Notes: generated by a model from the sequence alone, not told the origin. DNA of 64,000 nucleotides from an uncultured delta proteobacterium (GCA_963804165.1 CAWDPO010000042.1:64001-128000); one strand, 5' to 3'. Positions 9,010-41,748 are shown, numbered from the stretch's first letter. Numbers and translations are program-made.

Positions 9010-9022
9010 CGCTAAAACCCTC

Positions 9023-9231: not shown

Positions 9232-9240
9232 ACAGTCGCC

Positions 9241-11345: not shown

Positions 11346-11373
11346 GACAATGGGTTCCTCCCTTGAAAATTTT

Positions 11374-12166: not shown

Positions 12167-12178
12167 GGATATTCGATA

Positions 12179-13000: not shown

Positions 13001-13007
13001 ACGGGGA

Positions 13008-13867: not shown

Positions 13868-13871
13868 CGGC

Positions 13872-16633: not shown

Positions 16634-16679
16634 AGCTGTTTATCTCTTGCTGCGACGACTTCGAGCTCCGAACCGCTTC

Positions 16680-17168
16680 CTATTCGACGACGTCCACCAA
16701 CTCGATAAACTTCTTCTCGCCGTCGGCGGGTCGGGATGATTTCAATTCTGCGCGGCTTTCTCTTCGTTGAAGCCGGGGATCCTGCTCGGCTCTTGATCGG
16801 AGAATCAGCCATCCGTTCGACCCGTTGACTCGTCCCAAGCACTCCACTATCGCTTTTTTGAGCGCATCCTTATCGATCGGCCACTTTAAGTGGAGCAGCC
16901 TGTCGCCGCCCGGGACTTGCGTCTCCGCACCCGCGTCGATCCAGATAATCGGAAATTTCCAGTTTTGTACCGCGTCGAACGTTGCTGGGGCGTCAATGAG
17001 TTTCGCTCCCGCAGCGCCGCTCCATCGACAATCACTAGATCGGGGTCTGACAATGTCTCCGCCTCCGCAATGGTAGTTACAACGTCGACCTGATGATCGT
17101 TCGAACAACGCCACGGCAAATGCGTGTCGTAACATTTTGTAAGGTTCGATGACTAAGATCCTACTCAT
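16680..17168 (-). CDS. Hypothetical protein, degenerate receiver-like fold
   Basis: [17 protein letters not shown]...PDLVIVD...; ends [11 protein letters not shown]; frameshifted. Confidence 0.55.
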
Positions 17169-26165: not shown

Positions 26166-26242
26166 GGCGGTGTAGCTCAGTTGGTCAGAGCACGCGGCTC
26201 ATATCCGCGGCGTCGACAGTTCGAATCCGTCCACCGCCACCA
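26166..26242 (+). tRNA. tRNA-Met(CAT), elongator type; 3' half forms attL
   Basis: GGCGGTG acceptor stem with G1-C72 pair, CGCGG-CTCATAT-CCGCG anticodon arm, TTCGAAT T loop, 3' CCA. Confidence 0.94.
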
Positions 26243-26308
26243 ATTCTTCTCTCGGTAAGATCACGAATTCCATAGGTACTTTGCTGTGTTGCTAGCATCC
26301 TAGCCAAC

Positions 26309-27598
26309 TCAGCCATTTTTGCTTGAATGCTGTTTTGTACACTTTTTTGCCCCCAAGTTGGACGTTTTCAGACTTGCCCCCAAAGAAATTTTAGGCGACT
26401 CCCCAAGCCTGAGACCGCTATCTTTCATGCGCTCCTGCATCGCGCGCAGATACTTTGTTGTCGTCGTCAAGTTCGTGTGTCTCATCAAGCTCATCAGCAC
26501 GCGCGGGTCATCTGGTCTGAACCGTGCTAGCGAAGTAATCGCGCATGTCCTTCGGTCGCAGCTTCACGCTCGGCTGAATATTGCTCGATCCACAGGCAAA
26601 GCAACCAATGCCTTCGTCGACGTTGACCGACCTACATTTCGAGCAGCAATGGATGCGCGAGACGGCTTCGATTCGTTTGCAGTCCCGGCAGTGGCGACGC
26701 TTGCCGATGTTGCCGCCCGAACAGTCCGTGCAGCGAGAAGTAAGCCGCTCGATCTTCTCGAACAGGCGCCGGCGCGAATAGATTTTTTTCCCTTGGTCTG
26801 AGCCGATCGGCCGGCAAAGACATAATCAGACATGCTCCCAGCCTTGTGCTTTTTGAGACTTTCAATCAATGCCGGCGCCAACGGAAGGTATGCGTCGGAC
26901 TCGTCAGTCTTCGTGCCGCGGCAATGAAAATAACCTTCATCGAAGTTAATATCTTCCCATCGGAGCCGGTTCGCTTCGTCCTTCCGTAATCCGCTGAAAC
27001 GTAGAAAATCAAAGTAAGCTCTATCGGCCGGATTCTCGATGCTCTCTGCCGCTCTTTCCACTGCGGGTAGATTTAGCGGCGCCTTCTTCGGTTTCGTGCT
27101 GCCGATGATGCTTGTATCGAGTGCATCAACAGGATTTTTCACGAGCAGGTTTTTTTCAATCGCCCAATTGAGCAGCGCCCGAAGGTTTGTCACGTCATGC
27201 CACACCGTTTTCGGCTTAACGTTTCGCTCTCGCTGTATCACGAGCTTTTGGACCTGATCTGACGTAATGGATCCGATCGGCGTTGCCGCACCGAAGAACG
27301 GAATGATGATCTTGTCGAAGTTCCATCTCATGCCGTCGATTCGCCACCCGGAACGGCCTTTTTCTGCGGATTCCACGAGGTACGCGCTGACCACGGTTAT
27401 CAGTGCCGTTGGCGGTAACTCCGGCGTCTTGGGTCTGCTCGCCACCTCTGTCTTGAGCTCAATGAGTGCCGCCTTCGCCTCTTCCCGCGTTGCCCAGACG
27501 TAGCGCTTGTAAGTGCGCCCTTGTAGGCAAACCCTGTAACCCCAGCGGTCCCGCTCCGCCCGATACTCGATTCCGTTTCTCTTTTTTCTCTTTGCCAT
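26309..27598 (-). CDS. int: Tyrosine integrase with zinc-ribbon insertion (two apparent frameshifts)
   Basis: SGLRKDEANRLRWEDI (box I), GTKT, RPKDMRDYFAS and LMRHTNLTTTTKY (box II) after frame correction. Confidence 0.9.
26347..26407. promoter_or_regulatory. Putative integrase arm-type binding sites, left arm
   Basis: TTGCCCCCAAG (26347), TTGCCCCCAA (26374), TCCCCAAG (26400); same motif recurs beside attR. Confidence 0.55.
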
Positions 27599-27773
27599 CG
27601 TTCCCCCGCTGGTAGTGAACGCGTAGATTTATATATGTGTCTACGTCCTCTTGTCGATAACGCCTAACGCCCTTTCCGGCGCCTACTCTTACGAACGGTA
27701 TCCCGAGAGTTGCAACGGTTCGCTTTTTTACTTGCAGCTGCGCCGCGACTTGTCTGTCCGTGAGAAGGATCAA
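27459..27773 (-). CDS. Excisionase-like winged HTH protein
   Basis: LLTDRQVAAQLQVKKRTV...IPFVRVG...VRRYRQEDVDTYI, directly upstream of int; true stop probably near 27600. Confidence 0.75.
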   Translation of the reverse strand: MILLTDRQVAAQLQVKKRTVATLGIPFVRVGAGKGVRRYRQEDVDTYINLRVHYQRGNDGKEKKEKRNRVSGGAGPLGLQGLPTRAHLQALRLGNAGRGEGGTH

Positions 27774-27945
27774 CGCCCGCCTCCTTTGCGACGAACGAAA
27801 TCAACAGCTCCATCGGCGGCGTGACGATCATCTCGCCCCGCTCCATGCGCGCAACCGAATTGCGGGTCATTCTTACCTTGGCCGCAAATTCGTGCTGCGT
27901 AACCCCCAATGCACGGCGAATGTCGCCTAGCTGTTTGCCGGTCAT
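27664..27945 (-). CDS. XRE-family HTH regulator
   Basis: LGDIRRALGVTQHEFAAKVRMTRNSVARMERGE. Confidence 0.85.
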   Translation of the reverse strand: MTGKQLGDIRRALGVTQHEFAAKVRMTRNSVARMERGEMIVTPPMELLISFVAKEAGVDPSHGQTSRGAAASKKANRCNSRDTVRKSRRRKGR

Positions 27946-28016
27946 GATACATAACGTATACTGCTTTTGTGTAACCCTGTCAATGCTAATGAACGCCCCG
28001 GGCCATCAAATGTGGC

Positions 28017-29291
28017 TGTAGTAGCAACGTGATTATGACAGGGGCTAACGGCAACGTAATTATGTCAGGGTGGGAGGATGACAACCCTGACGATGCAAGA
28101 CGAGAAGCGACTAGACGTAATACAACGAGTGAATCGAAGCGAGCTGACCGTGGTGCAAGCGGCACTGGTGATGGGACTAAGCGAACGGCAGTGTTACCGG
28201 ATCAAAGCATGTGTCGGTAAAGCCGGAGCCAAGGGAATCGTTCACGGTAACCGCGGACGGCCCTGTAAACGCAAGACCAAGGAGAAGACGGTTAGACGTG
28301 TCTTGGAATTAGCCCGAGGTAAATACCAAGGCTTCAACGACCATCATCTGACCGAGAAGCTCAAAGAACAAGAACAGATCGAGCTCAGCCGTGAGAAAGT
28401 CCGCCGTATCCTTCGTGCCCACGGGATCGGCTCCCCCAAGAAGCGTCGCGGGATTAAGCACCGAAGCCGCAGAGAAAGACGGGCCAGTGAGGGGATGATG
28501 CTCCTGCCACGAGCAAAGTCATGGGAGCCTTTTTTGCCCCGGCCGAGAGTTCCTGGGGTTACTTCCATCTGTTCTCCGAGATCTTCAAGCAGCATGGAGT
28601 ATCCCAGTCGATCTATACGGACTGTCACTCGGTATTCTGGACCGATCGGGAACCGACGTTAGAGGAGCAGTTGATCAACAGAAAACCCACCACCGAAGTC
28701 GGTCGAGGCTTGGAAGAGCTCGGGGTGACCTTGATCCTAGCCCATTCCCCTCAGGCCAAGGGGAGAATCGAGAGACTGTGGAACACTTTCCAGGACCGGC
28801 TGGTCAGTGAGCTGCGGTTGGCCAGGGCCAAGAGCGTGCAACAGGCAACCGTGGTCCTGGATCGTTATCTCCCCGTGCATAACCGTAAGTTTGCTAAGCC
28901 CGCTAAAGCACAGCCGGCCTGGAGAAAAGTCAGTGCTCTTAAGATCGAACGAGATTTGTGTTTCAAACAACAGCGCACAGTGGCTAAGGACAACACGGTA
29001 ACTTTCGAACGGACGGTTTTGCAGATCCCAAGACCTCGCCCTTTCGTTCTCACGCCAACAAAAGAGTCGAGGTCAACGTGATGTTGGACGGTGCGGTGGA
29101 GATTTTCTACAAGACTGAGAAAATCGCAACCTTCGATTCAAAAACAACGCACGCAATTGGCCTATATCGAACGATCGGAAAAAAGGAGGGGTTCCGCTAT
29201 GGTCCGCTTTCTAGGCTGGCCATTCAACCTGAGGTGTCACCCTGACATTTTTACCTTGCTGTTAACATGACATATTGACGTTGCTACGACA
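28017..29291 (+). mobile_element. IS1202-family (former ISNCY) insertion sequence with 16-bp target duplication
   Basis: TGT...ACA ends; IRs TGTAGTAGCAACGTGATTATGACA and TGTCGTAGCAACGTCAATATGTCA; DR GGCCATCAAATGTGGC at 28001-28016 and 29292-29307. Confidence 0.9.
28078..29245 (+). pseudogene. IS1202/ISNCY transposase with internal deletion and frameshifts
   Basis: HGNRGR, HRSRRERR...EGMML, YTDCHSVF, AHSPQAKGRIERLWNTFQDRL; the QxDGS...IDDAT segment is missing. Confidence 0.85.
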
Positions 29292-29394
29292 GGCCATCAA
29301 ATGTGGCTTGTTAACATTCTCACTAGTCCTGTATGCTAAACTTGGTGTATCCAATGGCATAGGCTGCCCAACGGCAACAAAGCCACAGCGAGCA

Positions 29395-29826
29395 ATGGCA
29401 GAAGCAGAAGCTCTTGAGACCATTCTCGGCTCATTCGTCGTCGGTGGATTCGCCATCGCGGTTGTCTACTTCGCGGTTAGGGTCCGGGCGCGTAGAACCG
29501 CCCAGGCGCTCTTTGTCGATTCCGTCCACGAGATCTTGTTCGACATATATCCCGAACCGCCTAACTGGCCGAAAAATAGTCGGCAAGTATTGCAAGAGCG
29601 CATGCCCGAGATGCAATTCGCGATCAACCAATTGCGCCCACACCTTCGCAAACGAGAAGTCGCTCGCCTGGACGACGCATGGACCAAATATAAGAACTAC
29701 TGTCGCCAAATTAACGATACAGAAATAGCTGCTCTCCCTTTTTCTCAATCGACTTCGTCTGTGGATCAAAAAGGGCGATTCAAAGCTCACGTCGATCAAC
29801 TCCTGTCGTATGCAAAGCACATTTAA
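29395..29826 (+). CDS. Hypothetical protein with N-terminal membrane anchor (element accessory gene)
   Basis: Intact ORF; ILGSFVVGGFAIAVVYFAV TM segment followed by helical domain. Confidence 0.65.
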   Translation: MAEAEALETILGSFVVGGFAIAVVYFAVRVRARRTAQALFVDSVHEILFDIYPEPPNWPKNSRQVLQERMPEMQFAINQLRPHLRKREVARLDDAWTKYKNYCRQINDTEIAALPFSQSTSSVDQKGRFKAHVDQLLSYAKHI

Positions 29827-29905
29827 AATTTTCGCGTATTCTTCGTTGCGGATCTGATCGACCAAAAGGTCAAACGGACTCTTGGCCGGCTCGCCCATTT
29901 TTTAT

Positions 29906-30310
29906 CTACGCGCCCACGCCGGCGAACTTCTCGCGAAACGCTTGATAGTCCCTATTGAGCGCCTGTAGCTGGGTGGTCCGCTCGGCAACCTTCCTGTCTA
30001 GTTCCTCGATGCGAAGCCGACGCGCGTCCATGGTCGCGTACTGCTCATATTCTTTTTCCCAAGTTGCGAGTTGGCTTTTCTTTGCTTCGATTTGCGACTC
30101 AAGCGCTTTGATTTCGGCGTTGCGCTTATCCCATGCTTCATTGAGTATTTCGTTGGCTTGCTTCAGCTTTTCATTCTCTTCGGCGCTCGCCTGATATTCG
30201 ATCGCACTGCGCAGTGTGCTTGCTTGCCACTCGGCGAATTCCAAAAATTTGGCTAATTCTTTTTGCTTGTCCATCGTCTTGCTTTTCCCTTTCGTGTTTT
30301 TGTTACTCAA
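29906..30310 (-). CDS. Hypothetical coiled-coil protein
   Basis: Heptad-rich E/K/Q sequence; translationally coupled to upstream ORF. Confidence 0.7.
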   Translation of the reverse strand: MSNKNTKGKSKTMDKQKELAKFLEFAEWQASTLRSAIEYQASAEENEKLKQANEILNEAWDKRNAEIKALESQIEAKKSQLATWEKEYEQYATMDARRLRIEELDRKVAERTTQLQALNRDYQAFREKFAGVGA

Positions 30311-30882
30311 ACAGTCTTTTGTCGCGCGTTGAATTTGGTGTTGATGCTCAATGGCTCCGGCCGTTCTGCAGGCGCGGTGATCGCAACCGGTGCCGCACGT
30401 TCACTGATCGCGGCGCAGTCAGCGAGCGCTTGAATGTAGCCGCCGACCTGGCGCATGTAGCGCCGACAAGTACCCTCCACGTCGCCCGGCGAAAGGAACG
30501 CGCCATACTCCCGAATAAGCGTTGCCCGCTTAACTCGATCAACCTCGTCCACGTAAACCGTTTGCCTGATGTGCTGCCAGCCAAGCTTGCTAAAATGGCT
30601 GACCGCGTTGCGGATCTGGTTTGGCACCTCGAATAACTTTTCGATTTCCCACAGTAGGTGAGAAATTTCCTGATGAGCGATATTGGCCGCCTTTACCTCG
30701 GCAACGAAGGGCTTGGCCTCTTTCTGAAAGAACGCGTCCAAGGCTGTTGCACGTTCGATTCCTTTCGGCGTTATTGCGTCGAGCTCCTTACGAAACTCTT
30801 TGACTGCCTCGGCCTTTCGCTTTTCGATTTCCTCGTCTGTAGGCCCGCCGACTACTTTTAGCTGGTCAGAGAAAGAATTCAT
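30307..30882 (-). CDS. Hypothetical protein
   Basis: 191-aa ORF with strong RBS (AAGGAGG). Confidence 0.7.
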   Translation of the reverse strand: MNSFSDQLKVVGGPTDEEIEKRKAEAVKEFRKELDAITPKGIERATALDAFFQKEAKPFVAEVKAANIAHQEISHLLWEIEKLFEVPNQIRNAVSHFSKLGWQHIRQTVYVDEVDRVKRATLIREYGAFLSPGDVEGTCRRYMRQVGGYIQALADCAAISERAAPVAITAPAERPEPLSINTKFNARQKTV

Positions 30883-30895
30883 GAATATCCTCCTT

Positions 30896-31372
30896 TTACT
30901 TTTGTGTCGCGAAACGGTGAATTAATTTGATGATGTCTGGATCATCGAACAAGCCTGGATAACGCTCGTAGAGCGCCTGGCCTTGCTCCATGGGTATGTG
31001 CTTCAGTGCAAAACCGTGAACAACGGCGATATTATCGTCGTACCGATCGGCCCAATCAGATCGGAGCACTCCCTCTGACGCTGCGCGCGCTGCAATGGGA
31101 TCTTCATGGCTCTGGGCGTCGAAGTCGCGAGCAGCCGCCGCCATCTGCTGTTCAAGTTGTCCGCCGCCAATCACTTCCTCGCCGGGATATTTCAAATCAA
31201 AAAGTGCATCCACCAGCGCCTTAGCCTCAGCGTCGCCCGCATGAAATTTGTGATGCATCGCATGAGATGAGTCACGGATAATTTTTTCCGCCTCTTTGAC
31301 GGCGCCCTCGGAAGTCGGCATTTGTCCCTGAAAGTAGCTGGGCAAATCGATTCGCCCGGTGATTTCGCTCAT
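30896..31372 (-). CDS. Hypothetical protein, possibly capsid-scaffold-like
   Basis: 158-aa ORF with RBS; LRSDWADRYDDNI...GLFDDPDIIKLIHRFA recalls podophage scaffold motifs (recall-based). Confidence 0.55.
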   Translation of the reverse strand: MSEITGRIDLPSYFQGQMPTSEGAVKEAEKIIRDSSHAMHHKFHAGDAEAKALVDALFDLKYPGEEVIGGGQLEQQMAAAARDFDAQSHEDPIAARAASEGVLRSDWADRYDDNIAVVHGFALKHIPMEQGQALYERYPGLFDDPDIIKLIHRFATQK

Positions 31373-31414
31373 AGTGTTTGTTCCTTTCTTCCATGTGTGT
31401 TTTTTCCAGATTTT

Positions 31415-31550
31415 GCTGTCAAACCGTCAAAACGATTTATGAGTTCGACACTTGAGTCGTTTTTTCATGTGTCAAATGGATTCCCCTTTTGACAGATAGA
31501 AAAATCACTTCAGTCTTTATTCTTATTGCTGTCTTGACGGTTTGACGGAT
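31415..31550. other. Putative replication origin (inverted iterons)
   Basis: TGTCAAACCGTCAA (31417-31430) inverted to TTGACGGTTTGACG (31534-31547), inner TGTCAAA/TTTGACA pair, AT-rich spacer, at the replicase 3' end. Confidence 0.55.
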
Positions 31551-33575
31551 AAATCTCGATATTATCGGGAAGGTAACGCGCGCGCAGCTCCTTGACCCAT
31601 TCACGCCCGATGGAATAACCCCTACTCTTGCCGTCTTTTGACGGCCTGGGGTATGCCCCAAACTTCTTTAACTGTCCAGCGAGCTTTCGCGTCGAATCGA
31701 TCCAAGACAGTTCAGCCGTTACCCTCGCGAGTAGATCCGCCGATAGAACGAATATGGTTTCCTCATCCGGCTTTTCGTTGAGACATGCCTCTAAGACGGT
31801 AACGAGTCCGGAAAGCGTAGAGTCTTCCGACGCGGTGCCCTTCGTGCCGGCCATGTCGCGCAGTAGGTCGCAGAAGCGCTCAGTTACAGCACCGCGTCCG
31901 TTGGAAAACTCGCAATCTGAAAAGATGGCAATTGTTAGCAGCGGTTCAACGATGTCTAAAAATCTATCGTCAAGGTCCTTAAGTCTATCGGTTGTCGCCA
32001 AAATATCATCGATGCCGTCATATAAATCGGCGATTCCCTTCTCGCGTTCGGTTGCCCACAGCCGCAAGTCCGTCCGAAGCTTTTCTAATTCTCTGCCTTG
32101 GCGTCGGATCGTAAAACGTTCGACGGTCTCGCTCGCCGTCTTACGGCTCATCGTGACTAATAGACTACGATCGGCGAGCGTATCGCTAAGGCTGTTGATA
32201 CCCGCCAACGCCTTAGGACAAAACGCATTGAAGTAGATGACTTCAAATCTATCCTCTACTCTTTGGGCTCGCGGCACTTTCGCGCCGCTCTGGAATCCCG
32301 CGTTGAGCAGTCCCATGACATTGCTAAATTTTTCCCTGTCCTGATTGCGTAGCGATTCAAGCTCATCCAACAGCATCGTCGCGCCGCTATCTGCCAGCCG
32401 GAAAATAACGGCTTCGCTGGCGTTGGATAGGCGCGGCGTGGCTTGTGCGGCAAGTTGGCCGATGATCTCAAGCACAAGGGTTTTCCCGCAGCGCAGTACA
32501 GGTGAGTTGAGATGCAAATAGCCGAAGTAGGCGAACAAGCGGTGCAAGTAGGTTCCCATCACCCACAGCGCGAGCAATAGCGGATAGCGTTTTTCTCTAA
32601 AAAACACGTAGCGGGAAAAAATAGCTTCGAGCGTATCTATCAAGTCGCGCGTCCGCGGCACTGGTGGGTAAAGTTCGATCGGCGCCGCCGCTGCTATCGC
32701 TTGCTCTAGTGCCGCTGTGAATTGTGCTGCGTCTTTGCACGTCAGCCACAAAGCCCGCGGATCTTTCTCGGGTAGCGAGACCGCCTTAACCGTGCTTCGA
32801 TACTCGGCGCCCTTTAGCGCCGCCGTAATGCTCGAAACGAACTGCTCGCCGGCGTTGCCCGGCTCTTGCACAATGACAATTTCAGGGAAGGGTACCAGGC
32901 ATAGGACCATTTCCGGCTTGAAGTTCCCGGCGCCCGGTATTCCAAGCGCCGCAATTCCGCAATGGGTTAAAACATGAACATCGCTGGCACCCTCGACGAC
33001 GACAAGCCGATCTTTAGTTTCCGGTAACTGCCAAAGGCCGTAGGGTAAAACCTTATCGCCCTTGCGCCACGAGAAGCGCTGATCTTTTTTGTCGCCCTTT
33101 CCAGCTTGTGCCGACGCTGCACTGATATAGTCGCGCCGCTTTCATCCTTGTAGGGAATCTCAATGCCGGCTTCGTCATTGGTGAGTGAAAAGGTCTCGAG
33201 TAGAAAATTCTCGGGTAACGCGCAAAAGTCAGCATACTCTGCGACCGTCAACGTCTTGGCTTTTCGCCTCGGCTTTTCCTCGCTGGTATCAATCTTGAAC
33301 TTGCGAGCAAGGTCCTTGGCTGCATCGACTGGTTCTATGAAAAGCTCACCAGCGAGCAATAGATCGATATTCGATCCACCTTTGTGGCAACCGAAGCACT
33401 TCCAGCGATTCGTTTCAGTGTTGATCTTGAATGATGGCGTTTTCTCGGAGTGAAATGGGCAAATCGTAACGAGATCACGGCCGGAATGATTTAGTTCCAG
33501 GTTCGGAAAATACTCTCGAACGACCGACTCTATGGGAATCGCTCTGATGCGCTCGAATAGATCGCCGTGACTCAT
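31510..33575 (-). CDS. Primase (CHC2 zinc finger + Toprim) fused to DUF3631-type P-loop domain (one frameshift near 33085)
   Basis: CPFHSEKTPSF...WKCFGC, VVEGASDV, SPVLRCGKT, TMLLDELE, LNAGF, DTLADRS. Confidence 0.85.
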
Positions 33576-33703
33576 GCGTTTTTCAGTTCCGGAAAAACGT
33601 CGAAGGCCCGCCCGACCGCCGCCTCGGATAGCCGACCTTCGCAGAAGGCCATAACCAGTCGTCGCTTAAAATACCGCGCGTTGTGCGGGCTTCGGGCGCT
33701 CAC
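33572..33703 (-). CDS. 43-aa hypothetical protein coupled to the primase (absent from ORF track)
   Basis: MSARSPHNARYFKRRLVMAFCEGRLSEAAVGRAFDVFPELKNA; its stop overlaps the primase start as ATGA. Confidence 0.5.
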   Translation of the reverse strand: MSARSPHNARYFKRRLVMAFCEGRLSEAAVGRAFDVFPELKNA

Positions 33704-33722
33704 CAATGGCGACTGGGATCAA

Positions 33723-34214
33723 ATGCTCGATGATCTCTATTTCGCTTTAACCGCTACGAAGCGTGGCGCCGAAAGGAACGACAAATACTCAGCGATCGTT
33801 AAAAACAAAATTGCTGTGTGGGAAGCGCTCGAAGAGCTAAGAAAGAGTATTGAGGCGGATGACGACGACACAACCGAACCGATCTTTCGCCGTAAAATGA
33901 ACGACGTAACCCTCGTCATCCGGCGCCGTGATGATCAAGGCGGCACATTTAATTGGGACGTTGAAAGCGATGACTTCGCTACGCTGATTTTTTTTGAATT
34001 TGCCAACTTGTTAAAAATATCCGGTCTGAACATATACGACGTTCACCGCTTCTCAAACGAGACATGCAAAAGACCTTTCATTCCCTTGAGGCAACCGCGC
34101 GAGGGCAGTCCCGCGTACTGCTCAAACGGATGCGCCAGGATTGTAGCTGCAAGAAATTATAGAGCGAACAAAAAAAAGGCAAAGGCGAAGGCCAAGAAAA
34201 AAAAGCGTAAGTAG
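33723..34214 (+). CDS. Hypothetical regulator with CGNR-like zinc finger; start uncertain
   Basis: C-terminal TCKRPF...YCSNGCARIVAARNYR and basic tail. Confidence 0.6.
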   Translation: MLDDLYFALTATKRGAERNDKYSAIVKNKIAVWEALEELRKSIEADDDDTTEPIFRRKMNDVTLVIRRRDDQGGTFNWDVESDDFATLIFFEFANLLKISGLNIYDVHRFSNETCKRPFIPLRQPREGSPAYCSNGCARIVAARNYRANKKKAKAKAKKKKRK

Positions 34215-34651
34215 AAACGAAACGGCCGAGCCCTGCGCTAACAGAGACACCGGCCATGAACGGGGACCACCTTGCGAGCAATCACGCCATTCGTGCGCGT
34301 TCCACTAGCTCGTTGCCGGTGTATGAAAAGCCCCTCTGAACAAGCCACCCTGTACGTTTGATTTTTTCGTTCATCTGCAAGGGTTAATTCGACCGTTCTT
34401 GTCCAAAAACAGGGCGTTAGAGCGCCGTGGTTTCGCGGATTTATCCCGAAATCCCCTTGGCATACCTATTGCGCCCCTAAGGGACAAGGAGAAACCATGT
34501 ATGGAAAGGATTCTCGATTCCAACACTCCTCTTAAATTGCTGAACCGTCTCGCGAACATCGATTGGGCCTTCCACATCTTTGGCTAACCTACTTCAGCAT
34601 TGTACTTGGTGCCTTCCGTTACTTTCTTAACGTCTGAATACCATCCGCCCG

Positions 34652-35634
34652 GTGGTGCGATTGAGTAGGAAGAAATCGGCGGAAAAGATTTCGTTCATCG
34701 AACCGATGTACGCACTCGCCGTGCGGCCTTTGCCCGAAGGCGATTGGCTCTACGAAATCAAACTCGACGGTTATCGCTGTCTTGCTGGCCGTGACGCTGA
34801 CGGCGTAAAGCTCTGGTCGCGGCGCGGCAACGAATTAACTTCTCAATTCCCTACAATTGCCAACGCCTTTAAAAAACTTCCGTCCGGTACGCTCATCGAT
34901 GGTGAGATCGTTGCGATGGATGCGAACCGCCAGATCTCCTTTAACCTGCTCCAGCACCATCGTTCACAGGCTTCGGCAATATGGTTTTTTTGCTTTGATG
35001 TTCTAATTCGATCCGGAAAAAGCATTCTTCAGCTGCCACTCATAAAGCGACGCGATTCCCTTGACGACATGTTACGGCAGGTGCGCAAGGATTCCTACGC
35101 TGTCGATGTTTCACAAATCCTTGTCGCTGGTCCTTCAGAGATTATCCGTACGGTTAGCGAGTTCGGGCTTGAAGGAATCATTGCCAAGCGGCCGAATTCA
35201 ATCTATGAGCCAGGACGGCGCAGCGGCGCATGGCTCAAGTACAAGATCAAACAGGGTCAGGAGTTCTCGTGATCGGCGGCTACACACCCGGCAATCCGTT
35301 CGATGCCGTCATCGTCGGATATTACCAGGACGGTAAGTTATTCTACGCGGGAAAAGTTCGTGCCGGCTTTGTGCCGCACGTCAGGCGCGAGATTATGGCG
35401 AAGATGAAAGCGTTAAGAATCGACGCTTGCCCGTTTGCCAATCTACCGGAGAAAAAGCTCACGCACTGGGCGCTCACCAGAAAAGAGATGAAAAACCGCG
35501 TCTGGCTCGAGCCGAAACTCGTCGCCCAAATAGAGTTCACCGAATGGACTCCAGACGGCCACCTCCAGCACGCGAGTTTCAGCGGGTTACGAACCGATAG
35601 GGACCCGCAGGAAGTTGCTTGGGAGCTCGGTTAA
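34652..35634 (+). CDS. ATP-dependent DNA ligase, LigD ligase/OB domains (frameshift near 35268)
   Basis: YEIKLDGYR, IDGEIV, FDVL, LEGIIAKR, WLKYK, YAGKVRAGF, EFTEWT. Confidence 0.9.
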
Positions 35635-35939
35635 GCGGAAAACGACGCATGCGACGACGCACCCGCGGGCGTGAGCTTGCAATCGTCATCAGTAGCCAAT
35701 TTCGACAATTTAACCTGATCCGTTCAAGCAGCGGCGTTTTGCAGGCGTATTTGCCGTTAAGTCCAGGAGCATTACGCTCTCACGCGTCGGTTTATTTCCT
35801 CGCTAGTTCCCAGATACTCTTTTCAAAATCACGGTACGGCGGTTGCTCAAAGTCCCCCTGCCGGTGACGGGAACCGCAACTTGATTTTACAACCTCGTCA
35901 ATCTCGTACCTCGGCGCAATTAATACAGCCACGCTCTTT

Positions 35940-36032
35940 ATGCTTTACGACCTTCTCCTAGCCGCCATAATCCTGGTACTGGCAATGCTTGTGCCTAAGC
36001 AGCCGCAGCGATGGAACCTAGTCCTGTGCTGA
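35940..36032 (+). CDS. Hydrophobic micropeptide, MLYD paralog 1 (30 aa)
   Basis: MLYDLLLAAIILVLAMLVPKQPQRWNLVLC; TGATG overlap with next gene. Confidence 0.45.
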   Translation: MLYDLLLAAIILVLAMLVPKQPQRWNLVLC

Positions 36033-36463
36033 TGCAGATAATTCGATATTTGATTACGGCGGCGCAGGCTGTCCTAGCCGTGTCGGTGATTATTGCGGGC
36101 GTCTCATCCGAAAATCATGCAGTCGGTCTGGTCTTAGCTTTTGTGGGAGCAATTCTTGTTTTCCATTTGCTTATGAAGACTCCCGTGAAAGGAACGTTCC
36201 TCTGTCCGCGTTGCTCTACGCGAATCAAACGCGGCACGGCTAAATGCCCTCACTGCAGCGCCCGTCTTGTCCTCCGACCGAAGGCAACATTCTATCACCG
36301 CGGCGCCAGAGAGATCCTGGCCGACGCGATCAATCATCCACGCGACCACAGTATCCGCGAGCGTGACTTGAATAGCACTGAGATTGTGATAACCGAACGG
36401 CACCATGCTTTACGACATCCTCGTTGCCGTCCTGATCCTCATACCAACAGTGTTCGTGTATAG
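36032..36463 (+). CDS. Two-TM protein with zinc ribbon
   Basis: Two hydrophobic helices then CPRC...CPHC; 3' end uncertain. Confidence 0.6.
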   Translation: MQIIRYLITAAQAVLAVSVIIAGVSSENHAVGLVLAFVGAILVFHLLMKTPVKGTFLCPRCSTRIKRGTAKCPHCSARLVLRPKATFYHRGAREILADAINHPRDHSIRERDLNSTEIVITERHHALRHPRCRPDPHTNSVRV

Positions 36464-36470
36464 ATGGACA
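36361..36470 (+). repeat. About 110-bp direct repeat, copy A (upstream region plus MLYD peptide)
   Basis: Aligns with 37323-37433. Confidence 0.85.
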
Positions 36471-36602
36471 TGTCGCGCTGACATGCCGAAGAAAATCGAG
36501 AGAGCCGGAAGCCGAAAAGAAGAACACTCTTTCGCAGCTGTCTCAGTGACCAATCAGGTAAAGACCACGCCTGCCAAGTTGGAGCAAGAGCACGCGTTCT
36601 AA
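36405..36602 (+). CDS. Hydrophobic micropeptide, MLYD paralog 2
   Basis: MLYDILVAVLILIPTVFVYRWTCR...; two extra bases relative to copy B extend it to 65 aa. Confidence 0.55.
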   Translation: MLYDILVAVLILIPTVFVYRWTCRADMPKKIERAGSRKEEHSFAAVSVTNQVKTTPAKLEQEHAF

Positions 36603-37012
36603 GCTTTACGCGGTGTGAACTCCCAACGCGCCGGCATTCTCGCTAGCTCCGCATTCAATCGGTCGATCTCTGCCTTAATCTTTTCATCTTTGGTGCGAAG
36701 GTATCGACTGCCAAGCCGGCCTAGGCGCTGATCGATCGCGTAGCGGACGGCGGCATGAATGCCGGCAAAGTTAACGCGAAGGTTTTGCTGTTGCCCTTCG
36801 CCCTGCTCGCCACCGAGGCTGAAAGGTTGCGGCGTGCGATCGAGGTGATGTCGGAATGCTTTCGCGTGCCCTTGCGTATCGATGTAGCGCTCGACCGCGT
36901 CTAGTGCCTCGTGAACCTCGGGCGTATCGATGCGGTGCTCTTTGCAATTGAGTGTTGCGTCCTCCAGTATTTTGAGGGCTTCAAGGACTCGCACACGACC
37001 ATTTAGACCCAA
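36599..37012 (-). CDS. Hypothetical protein
   Basis: 137-aa ORF with natural composition. Confidence 0.6.
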   Translation of the reverse strand: MGLNGRVRVLEALKILEDATLNCKEHRIDTPEVHEALDAVERYIDTQGHAKAFRHHLDRTPQPFSLGGEQGEGQQQNLRVNFAGIHAAVRYAIDQRLGRLGSRYLRTKDEKIKAEIDRLNAELARMPARWEFTPRKA

Positions 37013-37148
37013 AGGCCGTGATACTGAAAATATATTCAGGTGTCAATCGGAGAAACTAATGGAAAATTCTGTTTTAAGGTTGACAGGCGTGTCCGTAATT
37101 GACCTATATTAACCTTGGTTTCCTACCTACATTTTAGGGGGCGCACCA

Positions 37149-37318
37149 TGGTCAAAGATACGCAATTGACGGAGCTCCAATCCGTTAATGAGAAGATGGC
37201 TCAACTCTCAAGACAGATTCTAACCGAGCCATACAGCCCAAAGCGTGAAGAACAAGTAAGAGAACTCGGCCGACTTAAAGAGCAGGCAAGGCAACTACGA
37301 AACGAACAGCTGAACTGA
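37149..37318 (+). CDS. Small helical hypothetical protein
   Basis: MVKDTQLTELQSVNEKMAQL... preceded by AGGGGG RBS. Confidence 0.5.
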
Positions 37319-37322
37319 ACGC

Positions 37323-37433
37323 GCGTGGCTTGAACAGCGCTGATGTCGGTGATAACTGCACGGCACCATGCTTTATGACATCCTCGTTGCCGTCGTAGTT
37401 CTTGTACCAGTAGTGTTCGTGTATAGATGGACG
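37323..37433 (+). repeat. About 110-bp direct repeat, copy B
   Basis: Aligns with 36361-36470. Confidence 0.85.
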
Positions 37434-37442
37434 CGGCGCTAA
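37368..37442 (+). CDS. Hydrophobic micropeptide, MLYD paralog 3 (24 aa)
   Basis: MLYDILVAVVVLVPVVFVYRWTRR*; differences from paralog 2 are mostly synonymous or conservative. Confidence 0.6.
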   Translation: MLYDILVAVVVLVPVVFVYRWTRR

Positions 37443-37490
37443 CGCCCATTAGCTTGCAATCAAACCCTCTGGGCGATAAAGGCAAGCGTC

Positions 37491-37664
37491 ATGCCCTACC
37501 CGCTCCGATTCTACCTGTATCTCTTCGTCGCTAACGTCGCGGTGTTCCTCGCTGCTAAATGGCTTTCTCCGTACGGCCTCGGCTCCAATCCGGCGTTGTC
37601 CTTAGGTGCGGCCTATGTCGTCATTCTCATTCGCCGGCGGGTGCTCGGACGAAAGAATTTGTAA
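37491..37664 (+). CDS. 57-aa two-TM micropeptide
   Basis: MPYPLRFYLYLFVANVAVFLAAKWLSPYGLGSNPALSLGAAYVVILIRRRVLGRKNL. Confidence 0.45.
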   Translation: MPYPLRFYLYLFVANVAVFLAAKWLSPYGLGSNPALSLGAAYVVILIRRRVLGRKNL

Positions 37665-37798
37665 TGACATGCAATCGAGCACAGCCGCGGGCGTGAAAGA
37701 ACGAGGCTGCACCGCAAGGTCGGCCCCGTTTCTATTCTTTGCATGACGGTATAATGGGTTGTTGTTTGGCTCTCTAGCCTGAGCTAGACCTTATTCGG

Positions 37799-37957
37799 AT
37801 GAGGCGCAACCGGCATAGTTCCAAGCCGCGCCGCTGGAAGCGTAGCCACGCATTCACCACCCGTCATCGATGGAACCTCCGGCTAATCCGGCTAATCATA
37901 ACCGTTGGTATCATTGCACTACTGCTACTGCACCTACTGCGCATTATTTTCTTTTGA
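37799..37957 (+). CDS. 52-aa basic-then-hydrophobic micropeptide
   Basis: MRRNRHSSKPRRWKRSHAFTTRHRWNLRLIRLIITVGIIALLLLHLLRIIFF. Confidence 0.35.
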   Translation: MRRNRHSSKPRRWKRSHAFTTRHRWNLRLIRLIITVGIIALLLLHLLRIIFF

Positions 37958-38218
37958 GCCCGCACCTCTCCCGGCATGCCTGCGTAACCCGACCAGCTGC
38001 CTCGGGTTAGTCTCTGCGATTTTAAGCACACGGCTGCGGTAATATCGCGGATCTAGCCCAAGAGTGGCGCACACCCATTTGTAGCTGCCAACGTCTGCCG
38101 ACATTGATTCAAACCACGCGCGGGCGTTGCGTTGTCTGGAGTCGCGCGTAACGCCGGCAACGTCCGTAGTTGCCTCAATCAAAACGCCGAGCCAAAGCGC
38201 TTTTTCTTCCATAGACAA
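37934..38218 (-). CDS. Hypothetical phage-type protein
   Basis: EKALWLGVLIEATTD...ARAWFES...SYKWVCATLGLDP. Confidence 0.65.
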   Translation of the reverse strand: MSMEEKALWLGVLIEATTDVAGVTRDSRQRNARAWFESMSADVGSYKWVCATLGLDPRYYRSRVLKIAETNPRQLVGLRRHAGRGAGSKENNAQ

Positions 38219-38341
38219 TTTGTCGCTTTTCCGACAAGTGCCGGCCTTGTTGACAAGGGCGCCCTAAGTAAATAGTTTCGCGCCGCTGTGAAGCTCCGCA
38301 ATCACCCTGGAATAAGCACCTAGCCGCCGAGCTGGCTTGCA

Positions 38342-38587
38342 ATGTCGGGAGCGCACGAGAAAAGGTCGCCCGGTGAATCCGCCGTCCTCACGCACGTTGC
38401 TCTCTCCAAAATTGACCCGATAACGATTTGTTATCTAACCGTGCAATTTGAGAATGAGGAATACTTGGGAACTCTGCTCTGCAAAGGTCCCGAACTTTGT
38501 CGCACTGTGTACCAAATCCTGCAAAACCATATTGGAAAACCGATGAATGAGATTGGCGATTTCGACTTGCCCTACCCATCAACATAA
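38342..38587 (+). CDS. Hypothetical protein
   Basis: 81-aa ORF ending ILQNHIGKPMNEIGDFDL. Confidence 0.55.
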   Translation: MSGAHEKRSPGESAVLTHVALSKIDPITICYLTVQFENEEYLGTLLCKGPELCRTVYQILQNHIGKPMNEIGDFDLPYPST

Positions 38588-38625
38588 GAGCTCTTCAAGT
38601 CAGGGCTCAGAAAGTAAAGGTTTTA

Positions 38626-38843
38626 TGCCAAAGCGCACGACAAAGCAGCCGCATATGTATTCATTTAGCGTTCAATTTGAAGGCAAGAAATACGAAGCGA
38701 GCTACTCTATACAGTCTGGCGTCGTCACTGTTACTTCCGATTACGGCTCTCAATCAACTCATGCTGGCGGAAAAGCCGATTTAACTGCGCGCATGTTGCT
38801 CCGCGAAATCCTGGAGGGTGCGAAAGCTCGCGGTAAACTTTAA
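38626..38843 (+). CDS. Hypothetical protein
   Basis: MPKRTTKQPHMYSFSVQFEGKKYEASYSIQSGVVTV...ARMLLREIL with RBS. Confidence 0.6.
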
Positions 38844-38893
38844 TTTGAATATGATGTAATCCTTGGCCGTCATGAGCTGCGAAAATACGGTTT

Positions 38894-40961
38894 CTATAAA
38901 ATCCTTTGCTTTGGAGTCCATGAGTTACCCACATGTTGTATTCGCCGCACCTCAAAGTGTCTGTTGATCGTGAGTGGCGGCCCCCCGGTGGCGGCCCTCC
39001 CGGGTCGATTCGATCGACGCAAAGACTGAACGCGCGCGCCACATAGGACCACAGCGTGCGCTTATCCCGTCTTTCATCTTCGTACGACCATCGCCCGCTT
39101 AGGGCTTCTACGAGTAAACGCGCATTGCTCCTATCTATCTGAAGCGCCGGCTTCATTGTGAATGGCTGCGCCTTCCCGAAGACGTCAAGCATCGAATCTT
39201 TCCGAGTCTCCCACGGGTGACAAGCCGGGTCCCAGCTACCGCCGAGGCTGCTGTTAAGCATCCCGGCGAAGTCGCTTTGTGCTTGAGTCTCTAATTCCTC
39301 AACGACACCGAAGAGTAGCCGGCGGTCGTTAAATACCCATGGGCAATTAGCCACAAGAAACGGTTTTACGATTGTCTCAACGTGGCGCCGTAAGCTCATC
39401 TGCTCGTTCGCGAATGCCGCAAGAACAGTAATCGCGCCGTCGTCACTTTGAGCAATGACGGTTGCCGGCACTTCAAACGTTTGGCCGATGTAGACGGGTC
39501 CGCGAAAAGGCTCGATCGCTTCCGTTGGAACGTGCTGCGACAAATTGAATCCACGAGCTGCACGGCTACCGATCTCGCCGCGATGGGCCATGGCTGCAAC
39601 GCTCGCCATTGCCAGCGCGACGATGGCGTCAATCTTCTTGCTGGCCTTCTCTTTGGCGATTCTCCAGCCGCGGGGGTTCTCAACGGCTACCGTTGAAAGC
39701 GCTTGCTGTCTCAAATCGTCCGCCGGGTAGATCTCGAGGTTTAGCCCGGTGAGTAGATCGAAAAGGGTTTGCCCCATGAGCGTGCAGTTGGTTTGTGTCT
39801 GGGAAAACTCACGGATAGGCACGCCGGCGGCCTGTAGCGTGGTGATCGATCGGTGCATCTGGTACGGATCGGCGAGTATTTCCACAAATCGCTACGCTCG
39901 TTAAGGTCGCGCAAGTCCTGTTCGACGGTGTCCTCAAGGTCAAGCGGCTGTGTCGGCGTAGGTTTCCAAATCTTGTGAGACACGAGAATCAAGCGCTCGC
40001 CGGCTTCGTCCCACTTGAGAGCTACGCGCGCGGCATTGTCGTGCTTGATACCGACGTCGACGCCAACAAATAACGGCTCGCGGTCGGTGATGCTCGGTCG
40101 ATGCAGTTGATTGACGCACGGGTCACACATTTCAGGCGTGATGAATGTTTCTTCAGCCACCGCCCATTGGTTACGGTGCAAGCGCAGATAGGTGCCTGGC
40201 CTGAGTGTCTTTTTCTGGCTGTCGTAGTACGCCTGCGTTTGCCACTTCATGCGCGGTTCGTGGTCCCAGTAGGCAAACAACCGCGCCTCACGGTTACAGT
40301 AGATCGGCAAATCAGGGTGAAGCTTTTCGCCTTGGCCTTCGGGGTGCTCGTCCTTGCTCACGACTTGTTTGTACAGGTCCCAAAGCAAAGCCGATTCGCC
40401 TTCAAAGCCGGCATAGGTGGTAACCAGCCGGATCGAATTACGCCGGGTAGGCACGGGCGTCAACTCTTCCCAAAGCCGGATGCTCGACTCGCTCGTATAG
40501 CCCCAAAGCTCGTCATAGCTCACAAGTCCATGGTTAGAGCCCGCGGCGCCGGCATAGTCACCGCTGATCGCCGTTGCTGTGGTTCCGTTGGCAAGAAATA
40601 TAGTCTTGCTCTGCACCTCGGCTTCCCGCTGCAGCTCGGGGTTGTGCTTGATGATGCCTTCCATGGTCTTGAACACACGCGCGAGGGTTTGCTCAAGGTC
40701 GTTGGCGAGTATCAGGATTTCATTCGGCGCCTCTTGTGTGAATCCCCAGGCAAGCGTTAACGCGCCGTTCAGCGTGGTCTTGCCGCTCTTCTTGATGCAG
40801 CTGTAGATGATCGTGTCCCACGGCAAGCGGCCGTCCTGATCGAAGTCAAAGGCAAGGCGTAAGATTTCCCGCTGCTCGTCTATCAACGCGAACGGTTCTC
40901 CCAGCTCGTTTTTCTTAACGACTCTGTCAATGAAGGTGATAGGGGAAACGATGTTGCTCAC
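38894..40961 (-). CDS. terL: Terminase large subunit with extra C-terminal domain (frameshift near 39885; 3' end uncertain)
   Basis: Walker A CIKKSGKTT, Walker B YDELWG, motif III VTTYAG, nuclease GVDVGIKHD...ADPYQ...KKIDAIVALAMA. Confidence 0.88.
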
Positions 40962-41185
40962 ACTTGATCCAACAGCACGTGAAACTGAATAATGCCGACT
41001 TGATCGAGCATCGCCCTGGCGCGTCTCAGCGCATAGCCATCCATGCGGCAGTGATCAGAGCAGAACTTCTTACCGCTCTTCGCTTCTGTTGGAGCTTTGC
41101 AAAACGGATTGTCACACGGTTTAAAGCCGTGCTGCTCCGCCGTTAACGGCTCACTGGCGCACGATTGCATGATCTGTAGTGTCAT
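40958..41185 (-). CDS. Small Cys-rich hypothetical protein between terS and terL
   Basis: CDNPFC...KKFCSDHCR. Confidence 0.55.
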   Translation of the reverse strand: MTLQIMQSCASEPLTAEQHGFKPCDNPFCKAPTEAKSGKKFCSDHCRMDGYALRRARAMLDQVGIIQFHVLLDQV

Positions 41186-41618
41186 TGCCCCCGCTGGTTG
41201 CTTCCGGCTGGTTTAGGAGGTCTGCAAGTGAAGTCGTTTTGACACGGCGTTGAAGGCCAAGGGCCTGAAGATTCCCGCGCATGTGACTCGAAAGCTTAAC
41301 CCACGTATCGACTACGGAAATAACTTTGTTGTCGCGCACGATCTTGCCGTCTATCGACATCAGGTAGTTTTCAACGGTGCCTTTGAACAGCATTGTGTTG
41401 ACGGTGTCGGTAATGAGCGTTCTTTCCTGGGAGCTTGGATCCCCGCCAAGCGCGCTAATCAATTCCTGCTCTTTTTCTCTGAGCACTTTGGCGAGAGACA
41501 TGCGACCGTCAAGCTTTCCACCCAACATTCGGCGGTAAACATGCAGCGAATGTTTGACGGCGTGTGTATTGCCCTTAGCAACGGGTTTGACCGGCTTATC
41601 GCCCTTTTTGAACGGCAT
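41151..41618 (-). CDS. Terminase small subunit-like protein
   Basis: MPFKKG...GNTHAVKHS, DGR...LGGD, LQALGLQRR; lies upstream of terL. Confidence 0.65.
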   Translation of the reverse strand: MPFKKGDKPVKPVAKGNTHAVKHSLHVYRRMLGGKLDGRMSLAKVLREKEQELISALGGDPSSQERTLITDTVNTMLFKGTVENYLMSIDGKIVRDNKVISVVDTWVKLSSHMRGNLQALGLQRRVKTTSLADLLNQPEATSGGNDTTDHAIVRQ

Positions 41619-41698
41619 TTTGCCTCTTACTTGCCCCCAAGACATGCCCCCAGAATAAAAAAGCCATGAAGATCAACAACTTTCGTCGCTGTCATCAT

Positions 41699-41748
41699 GG
41701 CTCATATCCGCGGCGTCGAGAGTTCGAATCTCTCCACCGCCACCAATT
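41699..41748 (+). repeat. attR: displaced 3' half of tRNA-Met
   Basis: GGCTCATATCCGCGGCGTCGAGAGTTCGAATCTCTCCACCGCCACCAATT. Confidence 0.93.

Follow-up and report, generated by a model that had tools for sequence, protein, structure and literature searches.

A tRNA-integrated, PICI-like element with its own terminase and no detectable capsid, portal or tail genes, and its small relatives in diverse bacteria

Positions 26196-41748 of the window analysed here (the whole stretch of DNA, 64,000 nucleotides) contain an integrated element that encodes its own replication module and terminase and in which we detected neither capsid nor portal nor tail genes. We favour, with slightly better than even confidence, the view that it belongs to a widespread family of PICI-like elements of 8-17 kb that integrate into tRNA genes and would be packaged into the procapsids of helper phages. 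Because a terminase is present without recognisable structural genes and elements of comparably small size are found in many soil bacteria, the element may be an undescribed kind of phage parasite. The initial annotation had interpreted the interval as a satellite; this interpretation is partly supported, and the underlying observation largely holds, being confirmed in part. The boundaries of the element and its integration module are as follows:

26166-26242, + strand: tRNA-Met(CAT), the integration target (ARAGORN; Rfam tRNA, 63.8 bits)
26196-26245: attL, the reference repeat copy, inside the 3' half of tRNA-Met
26312-27598, - strand: tyrosine integrase in three frame pieces (main ORF 26564-27598, C-terminal piece 26312-26563)
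27664-27945, - strand: XRE-family HTH regulator (HTH_3 6.2e-8, HTH_31 5.2e-7)
28001-29308, + strand: insertion sequence (IS) of about 1.27 kb with its target duplication (IS itself about 28018-29291; inverted and direct repeats)
41699-41748: attR, the second 50-nt repeat copy (3 mismatches, 94%)

A repeat search of the window revealed that the element is enclosed by a 50-nt direct repeat, identical at 47/50 positions, the left copy of which is the 3' part of the tRNA-Met gene. The att-to-att span is 15,553 bp, or approximately 14.26 kb without the IS, in agreement with the att-bounded 15.5 kb (about 14.2 kb without the IS) proposed earlier. The main integrase ORF matched phrog_1 (8.9e-33) and Pfam Phage_integrase (PF00589, 6.8e-9), while the C-terminal piece, which covers the catalytic Tyr region, matched phrog_216 (1.8e-4). 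These matches and the HTH_3 domain bear out the annotated integrase and XRE regulator. The annotated xis gene was not confirmed: neither the Pfam search of the ORFs nor the six-frame fragments gave an HTH_17 or excisionase ORF in the element, and the gap between the integrase and XRE genes is too small for one. The only regulator found in the window element was the XRE/HTH_3 protein, with none of the AlpA/MerR/Stl type, whereas HTH_17 or MerR regulators are present in its relatives. The IS is delimited by terminal inverted repeats (28016-28072 and 29238-29292) and flanked by a 17-nt direct repeat, the target duplication (28001-28017 and 29292-29308); its transposase is split between 28078-28662 and 28521-29081, with HTH_28/rve_3 and transposase PHROG matches.

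The replication and packaging modules comprise the following features:

31405-31559: AT-rich region with five TTGACRG repeats (two doublets in inverted orientation and a single copy)
31510-33575, - strand: primase with CHC2 Zn-ribbon, Toprim and DUF3631 in one gene (frame change near 33100)
34652-35634, + strand: ATP-dependent DNA ligase with adenylation and OB domains (2 extra nt near 35262)
38731-40961, - strand: TerL with ATPase and nuclease parts, extended at the C-terminus by about 200 aa (1 nt missing near 39886)
40958-41185, - strand: 75-aa Cys-rich protein resembling a zinc ribbon, encoded between TerL and the TerS candidate
41151-41645, - strand: 164-aa candidate TerS, upstream of TerL (AF2 and BFVD)

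The primase gene, recognised as primase-DUF3631 from the start, consists of a CHC2 Zn-ribbon piece (32967-33575, - strand) followed by a DUF3631 piece (31510-32910, - strand), with matches to PF01807 (1.1e-19) and PF12307 (6.7e-6) and a Toprim motif that continues in another frame. The AT-rich gap after this gene holds 5 copies of TTGACRG within 133 nt (31416-31548), compared with 26 across the 64-kb window on both strands. Because of this cluster, the iterons of the initial annotation stand, in a modest form only, and the region 31405-31559 is a candidate origin or operator. The ligase was also correctly called (DNA_ligase_A_M, PF01068, 2.1e-34; A_C, PF04679, 8.7e-22), and its homologs in locus L001 show 70-73% identity.

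The call of terL was likewise sound, as the ATPase and nuclease parts matched phrog_9 (4.2e-22 and 6.4e-11, respectively). Its relatives include P0002 and P0008; intact relatives are 672-690 aa long, and the Walker A, Walker B and three nuclease Asp positions, invariant in 25 aligned relatives, are also present in the window TerL. The close TerL clade has the extra C-terminal region of approximately 200 aa, which relatives of approximately 500 aa lack. The only solved structure matched by the clade profile was PDB entry 6z6d_A ('Terminase large subunit', 3.5e-10), which we take to be the HK97 terminase, and the match covers the ATPase domain within the first ~130 profile positions. Sequenced phages lack this clade: the best match among 50,697 phage records has 23-29% identity (E ~5e-7). 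Compared with loci L001 and L002, dN/dS for TerL was 0.06-0.13 in both halves, with dS saturated; the gene is under purifying selection.

The 164-aa protein is a weak candidate for TerS. Its position and predicted fold favour the earlier assignment: most loci have a small ORF immediately upstream of TerL, and 20/25 top BFVD fold matches of its AF2 model (moderate pLDDT, 67.7) were annotated as small terminases, although the matches are weak (best E 7.5e-3). HMM support is lacking, as the candidate had no Pfam or PHROG match and none of the 35 proteins formed by it and 34 aligned relatives had a TerS-family Pfam match. Its 32 relatives at E<=0.001 include none with a functional name, small-terminase entries appeared only at ranks 26, 46 and 50 of a PDB fold search amid unrelated helical proteins, and 1/68 ORFs sampled upstream of TerL matched a TerS PHROG, weakly.

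The TerL family comprises 1711 proteins at E<=0.001 and 74 genomic loci, nearly all of the loci being MAG contigs. The loci are labelled as Deltaproteobacteria, Alphaproteobacteria, Acidobacteriota, Binatia, Nitrospira, Chloroflexota, Verrucomicrobiia, Acidimicrobiaceae, Gemmatimonadota, Armatimonadota, Planctomycetota and others. Only three families are widely shared, namely TerL (71 loci), the tyrosine integrase (41 sources, one of them the window) and the primase/helicase (16); BLAST and phmmer clustering revealed no further gene family conserved across loci. Of the loci that contain a tRNA or tmRNA gene, 29 were checked, and 16 of these carried att-type repeat pairs of at least 21 nt enclosing TerL. 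These 16 att-bounded relatives measure 8.4-16.7 kb, their repeats are derived from tRNA or tmRNA genes, and they span diverse lineages, with TerL identity down to about 40%. They share a core of integrase, replication gene, small ORF and TerL, and the gene order in the relatives is integrase, HTH_17 or MerR regulator, primase, small ORF and TerL. Att-bounded elements of similar size with the same core do exist elsewhere, and the homologous elements are not full-length prophages, the outcome that the initial annotation named as refuting.

The reported lack of recognisable portal, capsid and tail genes was reproduced in the window element, both among its 33 ORFs (Pfam, PHROGs) and in 128 six-frame stop-to-stop fragments of regions without assignment, so that HMMs reveal no capsid or portal among the hypothetical ORFs; a negative HMM result of this kind leaves room for a novel capsid protein. 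Head-tail adaptor and connector genes had no match in the element either, and no lysis genes were found beside its full TerL. In the 74 related loci, the 236 ORFs near TerL that reach 230 aa included neither a portal nor any clear capsid protein, and the ORFs of 7 complete relatives (141) and of 6 close loci (136) carried no capsid, portal or tail Pfam. The sole capsid-family match near TerL was a 232-aa ORF in L005, whose similarity is to the protease-like N-terminus of a 'major head protein' family. ClpP-like proteases are encoded at L017 and L038; L010, L031, L032 and L045 have tape-measure-like proteins. These few head- or tail-related matches count against the favoured reading.

Satellite P4 has no terminase of its own and uses that of its helper. 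The window element resembles P4-like satellites (see also PMC4936722) in its integrase and its Zn-ribbon/Toprim primase-helicase-type replication protein, and possibly in a virion that depends fully on the helper. It differs from them in having its own TerL, and for the capsid-size and regulation genes psu, sid and delta neither Pfam nor PHROGs gave an annotated match. PICIs in the SatelliteFinder definition are described, as far as the account in PMC10085698 extends, as having an integrase, an AlpA/MerR/Stl regulator, a primase-replicase and terS only, that account being silent on whether a TerL is excluded. Their median size of 9.5 kb puts them in the same size class as the TerL family (8-17 kb). 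On that description, the likeness further lies in a terminal integrase, in a regulator and a primase-replicase, in a packaging gene close to the opposite end, in the lack of structural or lysis genes and in conserved integration sites; the integrase-to-TerL order of the relatives resembles the PICI layout, and the window element itself has the integrase and the primase-replicase module. In contrast to the terS-only PICIs of the same account, the TerL family encodes a full-length TerL, and the window element has an XRE rather than an AlpA/MerR/Stl regulator and a TerS candidate without a TerS HMM match. The cfPICIs, according to the portions of PMC10085698 and 10.1101/2022.09.08.507074 that define them, have capsid, head-tail adaptor and connector genes besides terL; they share with the element a TerL with a (candidate) TerS, an integrase and a primase, but those three defining genes were not found in the window or the relatives. 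From a complete temperate tailed phage the element differs in that no portal, capsid or tail genes were found beside the terminase in the window, and the large ORFs near TerL in the 74 loci gave neither a portal nor a clear capsid protein. As to the earlier statement that TerS plus TerL without a capsid fits neither PICIs, cfPICIs nor P4, the element falls outside the cfPICIs and is atypical for a PICI in its TerL and for P4 in its terminase, while its TerS part is weak.

In the life cycle that we propose, the integrase would excise the element from tRNA-Met, and the Zn-ribbon/Toprim/DUF3631 primase would replicate it, with the TTGACRG repeat region as the probable start site. Recognition and cutting of the element DNA would then fall to TerL and the TerS candidate, which would pump it into the procapsids of a co-infecting or co-resident helper, for which TerL would have to dock on the helper portal; helper tails would finish the particle. 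Once the DNA has been injected, the ATP-dependent ligase could close its ends or nicks ahead of integration. The need for TerL to fit the helper portal may explain why the capsid-less satellites described so far carry no TerL, and it counts against this reading. A bolder proposal, to which we give somewhat less than an even chance, is that soil and sediment bacteria harbour a very widespread, hitherto undescribed class of satellites to which the element belongs, and that these have their own full terminase holoenzyme, with a TerL clade unseen in sequenced phages, and take only empty procapsids and tails from their helpers. If this is true, the C-terminal extension of approximately 200 aa in the 680-aa TerL would be an adaptation for docking on a foreign portal, and the element-encoded ligase an adaptation for genome re-circularisation.

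Among the alternatives, an integrative element that is never encapsidated, in which the TerL-like ATPase-nuclease has another role, fares best, and we consider it unlikely. Such a protein might cut concatemers to unit length, with the ligase re-circularising them, or might act in defence, keeping invading phages from packaging by serving as a decoy or nuclease. The element's own ligase and primase, the missing structural genes, the weak TerS assignment and the great distance of the TerL clade from phage terminases would suit this scenario, as would the defence-like cargo of the relatives, which includes an AbiJ domain and toxin-antitoxin-like genes. However, the ATPase and nuclease motifs of packaging terminases are both conserved, and the small ORF directly upstream of TerL in most loci is placed like a phage terS and resembles annotated small terminases in its top fold matches. 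In addition, the literature consulted, which was not searched specifically for this point, gave no precedent for such use of a TerL.

A normal temperate phage in decay, with head and tail genes deleted and the rest being lost to frameshifts and the IS, is a still poorer explanation and in our view quite improbable. The integrase (three frames), primase-DUF3631, ligase, TerL and transposase reading frame are all split, which the initial annotation did not mention, an IS with target duplication has inserted, and TerL is also fragmented in L003, L004, L007, L011 and L017. However, housekeeping genes in the left flank are hit too: a gamma-glutamyltranspeptidase and a class-I aminoacyl-tRNA synthetase are each in 3 pieces, and EF-G lacks its N-terminal domain. 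The frameshifts are therefore not element-specific, and assembly indels are as likely a cause as decay. Convergence of independent deletions on the same core is not expected, so the 16 att-bounded relatives from diverse lineages speak against a remnant, as do the 74 loci without a portal or clear capsid protein beside TerL, the absence of the TerL clade from the phage records and its low dN/dS. Independently of its origin, the window copy may be inactive because of the IS insertion and the several frame changes. An autonomous, very small virus with capsid proteins too divergent or novel for current HMMs is very improbable, because, although 10 window ORFs and the majority of those in the 7 complete relatives have no assignment, no further gene family is conserved across loci, the window ORFs without assignment are all <=215 aa, and genes for integration, replication and cargo are already accommodated in the 8-17 kb.

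The remaining ORFs of the element are small:

29906-30310, - strand: 134-aa coiled-coil-like protein (PHROG matches weak and mixed, all E >= 6e-4)
30307-30882, - strand: 191-aa protein (no Pfam, PHROG or Atlas match)
30896-31372, - strand: 158-aa all-helical protein, the sole candidate for a scaffold-like gene
33567-34214, + strand: 215-aa ORF with a basic C-terminal tail (homolog in L003, 33-45% identity)
35640-38730: 3-kb stretch of short ORFs (repeats, ORF list, tblastn)
36011-36463: 150-aa TM and zinc-ribbon ORF
36599-37012, - strand: 137-aa ORF
37934-38218, - strand: 94-aa ORF, with conserved counterparts beside TerL in L002 and L007

The scaffold-like gene of the initial annotation was not upheld. 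The 158-aa protein gave one Atlas language-model lead to a T7 capsid-assembly cluster (0.85, below the tool threshold of 0.9), while HMMs and fold search offered no scaffold support (AF2 pLDDT 70.6; best BFVD E 0.22); 5 relatives were found in 1.84 billion representatives. The true start of the 215-aa ORF is probably internal. No structural PHROG matched the six frames of 35640-38730, where three paralogous small hydrophobic peptides start at 35940, 36405 and 37368. In the relatives, many ORFs of 250-330 aa have no assigned family. The 75-aa Cys-rich protein, with weak HMM matches only (HNH PHROG 0.011, DUF2116 0.035), is conserved in L001, L004, L007, L017 and L069 at 39-61% identity (tblastn).

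We found that the element is bounded by a 50-nt repeat, identical at 47 of 50 bases, whose left copy is a stretch of the 3' half of tRNA-Met(CAT); both copies lie exactly where the initial annotation had placed them. Two of the three mismatches are placed on opposing arms of the tRNA T-stem. In our reading, the stem would be perfect in the attR copy and carry one mismatch in the attL copy, within the expressed tRNA, as expected if attR is the displaced native tRNA end. The tRNA was the sole match in an Rfam scan. The flanking genes on both sides are ordinary chromosomal ones, with a metallophosphatase on the left and both LipB and the pyruvate dehydrogenase E1/E2/E3 genes on the right; in the right flank, outside the element, positions 51993-53438 also encode a protein of 481 aa that combines a Schlafen AlbA_2 and a HATPase_c_4 domain. 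From left to right, the features are as follows.

26166-26242: tRNA-Met(CAT)
26196-26245: left copy of the repeat
Left end, minus strand: tyrosine integrase, oriented towards the tRNA
After the integrase: XRE regulator
After the regulator: insertion sequence, roughly 1.27 kb long, whose ends are inverted and which is flanked by a 17-nt target duplication
Minus-strand operon: CHC2 Zn-ribbon/Toprim/DUF3631 primase, an AT-rich gap, then 158-aa (30896-31372), 191-aa and 134-aa proteins of no assigned role
AT-rich gap after the primase: five TTGACRG repeats
Plus strand: ATP-dependent DNA ligase
Between ligase and TerL: short-ORF stretch of about 3 kb, including three paralogous small hydrophobic peptides
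Right-end operon, minus strand: 164-aa protein (41151-41645), 75-aa Cys-rich protein and TerL
41699-41748: right copy of the repeat

The initial annotation had reported no recognisable portal, capsid or tail gene, and this was borne out: searches for portal, capsid, protease, tail and lysis genes with Pfam and PHROGs gave zero matches among the 33 ORFs of the element and among 128 stop-to-stop fragments from all six frames of its unassigned regions, so that no capsid or portal emerged from the hypothetical ORFs. The excisionase that it had listed was not recovered, as neither the ORFs nor the six-frame fragments contained an ORF of that type. Promoter and terminator scans gave counts at or under shuffle expectation, a tandem-repeat scan returned nothing relevant, and an 11-mer taken from the repeat region showed no enrichment. 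The starts of the three hydrophobic peptides of the cargo region between ligase and TerL, at 35940-36032, 36405-36602 and 37368-37421, are 70-85% identical in DNA and share a hydrophobic N-terminus; the peptides might be small membrane toxins or holin-like.

The two halves of TerL matched terminase PHROGs at 4.2e-22 and 6.4e-11, and the profile of its clade found one match only among PDB sequences, a large terminase (3.5e-10). Across 25 TerL relatives, the Walker A and Walker B motifs and the acidic residues of the nuclease do not vary, and the window copy has them as well. Against two intact relatives, dN/dS was 0.06-0.13 in both halves, C-terminal extension included, a ratio that is rough because dS is saturated. 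The extension, a region of about 200 aa (38731-39400, minus strand), occurs in the closest TerL clade, whose intact members, such as P0002 and P0008, are 672-690 aa long, and is missing from relatives of about 500 aa; with the same saturation of dS, it appears to be under purifying selection. A search of 50,697 phage genomes gave a best match of just 23-29% identity (E ~5e-7), indicating that this clade is not known from sequenced phages.

A protein search revealed 1711 TerL relatives at E<=0.001, and a genome scan yielded 74 loci, which were taken with 10-kb flanks. Clustering of 1733 ORFs from these loci left three widely shared families only: TerL (71 loci), the tyrosine integrase (41 sources, one of them the window) and a primase/helicase (16). 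The small ORFs immediately upstream of TerL belong to several families, and phmmer clustering of 190 downstream ORFs revealed no widely conserved gene on that side. Among 29 loci carrying a tRNA or tmRNA gene, repeats of the gene end were sought, and pairs of 21-65 nt enclosed TerL in 16, with the integrase also enclosed in 15 of these; a 16-nt pair in a further locus (L056, 17.9 kb) was judged too short and left uncounted. The homologs delimited in this way are not full-length prophages, as the following spans illustrate.

Spans between att repeats in the 16 delimited TerL loci
L071: 8.4 kb
L003: 8.5 kb
L011: 9.6 kb
L007: 10.0 kb
L042: 11.5 kb
L073: 12.1 kb
L018: 12.2 kb
L001: 12.7 kb
L045: 13.0 kb
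L015 and L067: 14.0 kb
L035: 14.8 kb
L013 and L014: 14.9 kb
L048: 16.2 kb
L038: 16.7 kb

Pfam detected integrase and TerL in all seven complete relatives and no structural family in their 141 ORFs or in 136 ORFs of six close loci. In these two sets the replication proteins vary (RepB primase, Toprim-DnaB, AAA_25, Prim-Pol, VapE, DUF3987) and the regulators are HTH_17 or MerR. The closest loci also have counterparts of the ligase and of the 75-aa and 164-aa proteins. PHROG scans covered 102 and 134 ORFs, each 230 aa or longer and located no more than 6-7 kb from TerL; members of the integrase, TerL and primase families, part of the first list and ORFs above 750 aa in the second were omitted. 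Neither a portal nor a clear capsid protein came up. The exceptions included a TerL fragment (L050), and three protease-like ORFs near TerL: a ClpP-like SDH protease (L038:14224-15237), an ORF matching phrog_458 (L017:13722-14459) and a 232-aa ORF (L005:12069-12767; phrog_80/617) with a further match to the N-terminal portion of a 'major head protein' family. The last locus reaches its contig end, where further head genes are possible. Proteins of 316-850 aa at L032:6005-8044, L045:6298-8400, L031:6580-9141 and L010:12806-13756 matched tape-measure PHROGs (down to 1e-48), recalling the tape-measure gene of the EPIP satellites, which carry it with small terminase and head-tail genes (PMC12822802).

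The initial annotation had listed a small terminase gene, for which the 164-aa protein is a likely but putative candidate: the fold matches favour this assignment, and the profile searches lend it no support (0 of 35 family members). Its 32 database matches at E<=0.001, itself counted, include none with a functional name. TerS-family Pfam models matched neither this protein nor the 34 other aligned members; Pfam and PHROGs together gave nothing usable as TerS for the protein, all 35 family members or 68 ORFs sampled upstream of TerL, and the family profile was empty against PDB sequences. An AF2 model built on the 35-sequence alignment is of moderate confidence (pLDDT 67.7). Annotated small terminases, some of the P27 family or COG3747, make up 20 of its top 25 BFVD matches, which are weak (E 7.5e-3 to 0.4; TM-scores 0.4-0.6), and a Foldseek search of PDB placed small-terminase entries at ranks 26, 46 and 50 only (E 2.3-3.0), amid unrelated helical proteins. 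The one candidate for the scaffold-like gene of the initial annotation is the helical 158-aa protein, a proposal that found no support. Atlas linked this protein to a T7 capsid-assembly cluster at a score of 0.85, under the tool's threshold; a word-based homolog search was empty, an exhaustive search gave five relatives, neither Pfam nor PHROGs matched, and the best fold match had E 0.22. Atlas gave no usable match for the 191-aa protein.

Several reading frames of the element are broken. TerL changes frame past about residue 357, where the intact 672-690-aa relatives align straight across the junction; the apparent cause is the loss of a single base near 39886. The ligase frame is interrupted by two surplus bases near 35262, the Toprim domain of the primase continues in a different frame, and the integrase is readable only across three frames, its C-terminal fragment being confirmed among the six-frame fragments. 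These changes could be taken to mark a phage remnant, and they may reflect genuine decay; the insertion sequence is a genuine insertion whether or not they are errors. However, they cannot serve as proof of decay, because housekeeping genes of the left flank are equally broken: gamma-glutamyltranspeptidase (5184-6760) and a class-I aminoacyl-tRNA synthetase (13670-16842) are each split into three ORFs, EF-G (9241-10341) has no N-terminal GTPase domain, and CoaX (11374-12021) is partial. Breakage of essential genes points to consensus indels of the assembly, and the contrast between positions 4000-17000 and the intact right-flank genes (42.5-54.4 kb) suggests uneven consensus quality. The entire element was compared with the 74 loci by six-frame tblastn, and the 128 fragments with PHROGs; neither search revealed hidden broken structural genes. 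We give the remnant explanation lower weight.

To our knowledge, described satellites either redirect the helper terminase, through TerS or through cos/pac mimicry, or make their own capsids (cfPICI). The layout of the element resembles that of a PICI (PMC10085698), plus a complete TerL. A cfPICI is defined by capsid and connector genes, both of which the element lacks. Other candidate systems differ: PhiAH14b has no terminase (PMC4936722), the EPIPs have the gene set given above, VEIMEs possess terS homologs (PMC9618062), and the haloarchaeal SRCEs are unrelated (10.1101/2025.02.15.638363). No satellite with TerL and without a capsid is described in the full-text-searchable papers; subscription journals and supplements lie outside this scope, and a prior description is possible. 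Most economically, the element would be a satellite whose own terminase loads its DNA into procapsids of a helper; that it is packaged and depends on a helper is inferred, as are the functions of the ligase and the repeat region. An autonomous virus whose capsid proteins escape current profiles is given lower weight, as is a TerL put to non-packaging or defence use.

For a satellite, supplying the complete motor but no shell would be a third strategy beside terminase redirection and own capsids, and it raises the testable question of how a foreign TerL docks onto a helper portal. The family would also add a TerL clade that evolved separately from any known phage. Given its size and its occurrence in soil phyla that have received little study, it could explain many of the 'orphan terminase' hits listed as defective prophages by prophage finders. 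Some MAGs carry two or three distinct TerL-bearing elements (L001 and L003; L004, L007 and L017; L014 and L015; L008 and L009; L025 and L040; L026 and L030; L065 and L070), and L001 has an additional 2.6 kb tandem remnant with the same tRNA-Arg repeat. Cargo in the relatives includes a protein with an AbiJ N-terminal domain (L013:13175-14158) and a pair resembling topoisomerase VI, with HATPase_c and Spo11-type Toprim domains (L015:14045-16728), which may be defence genes.
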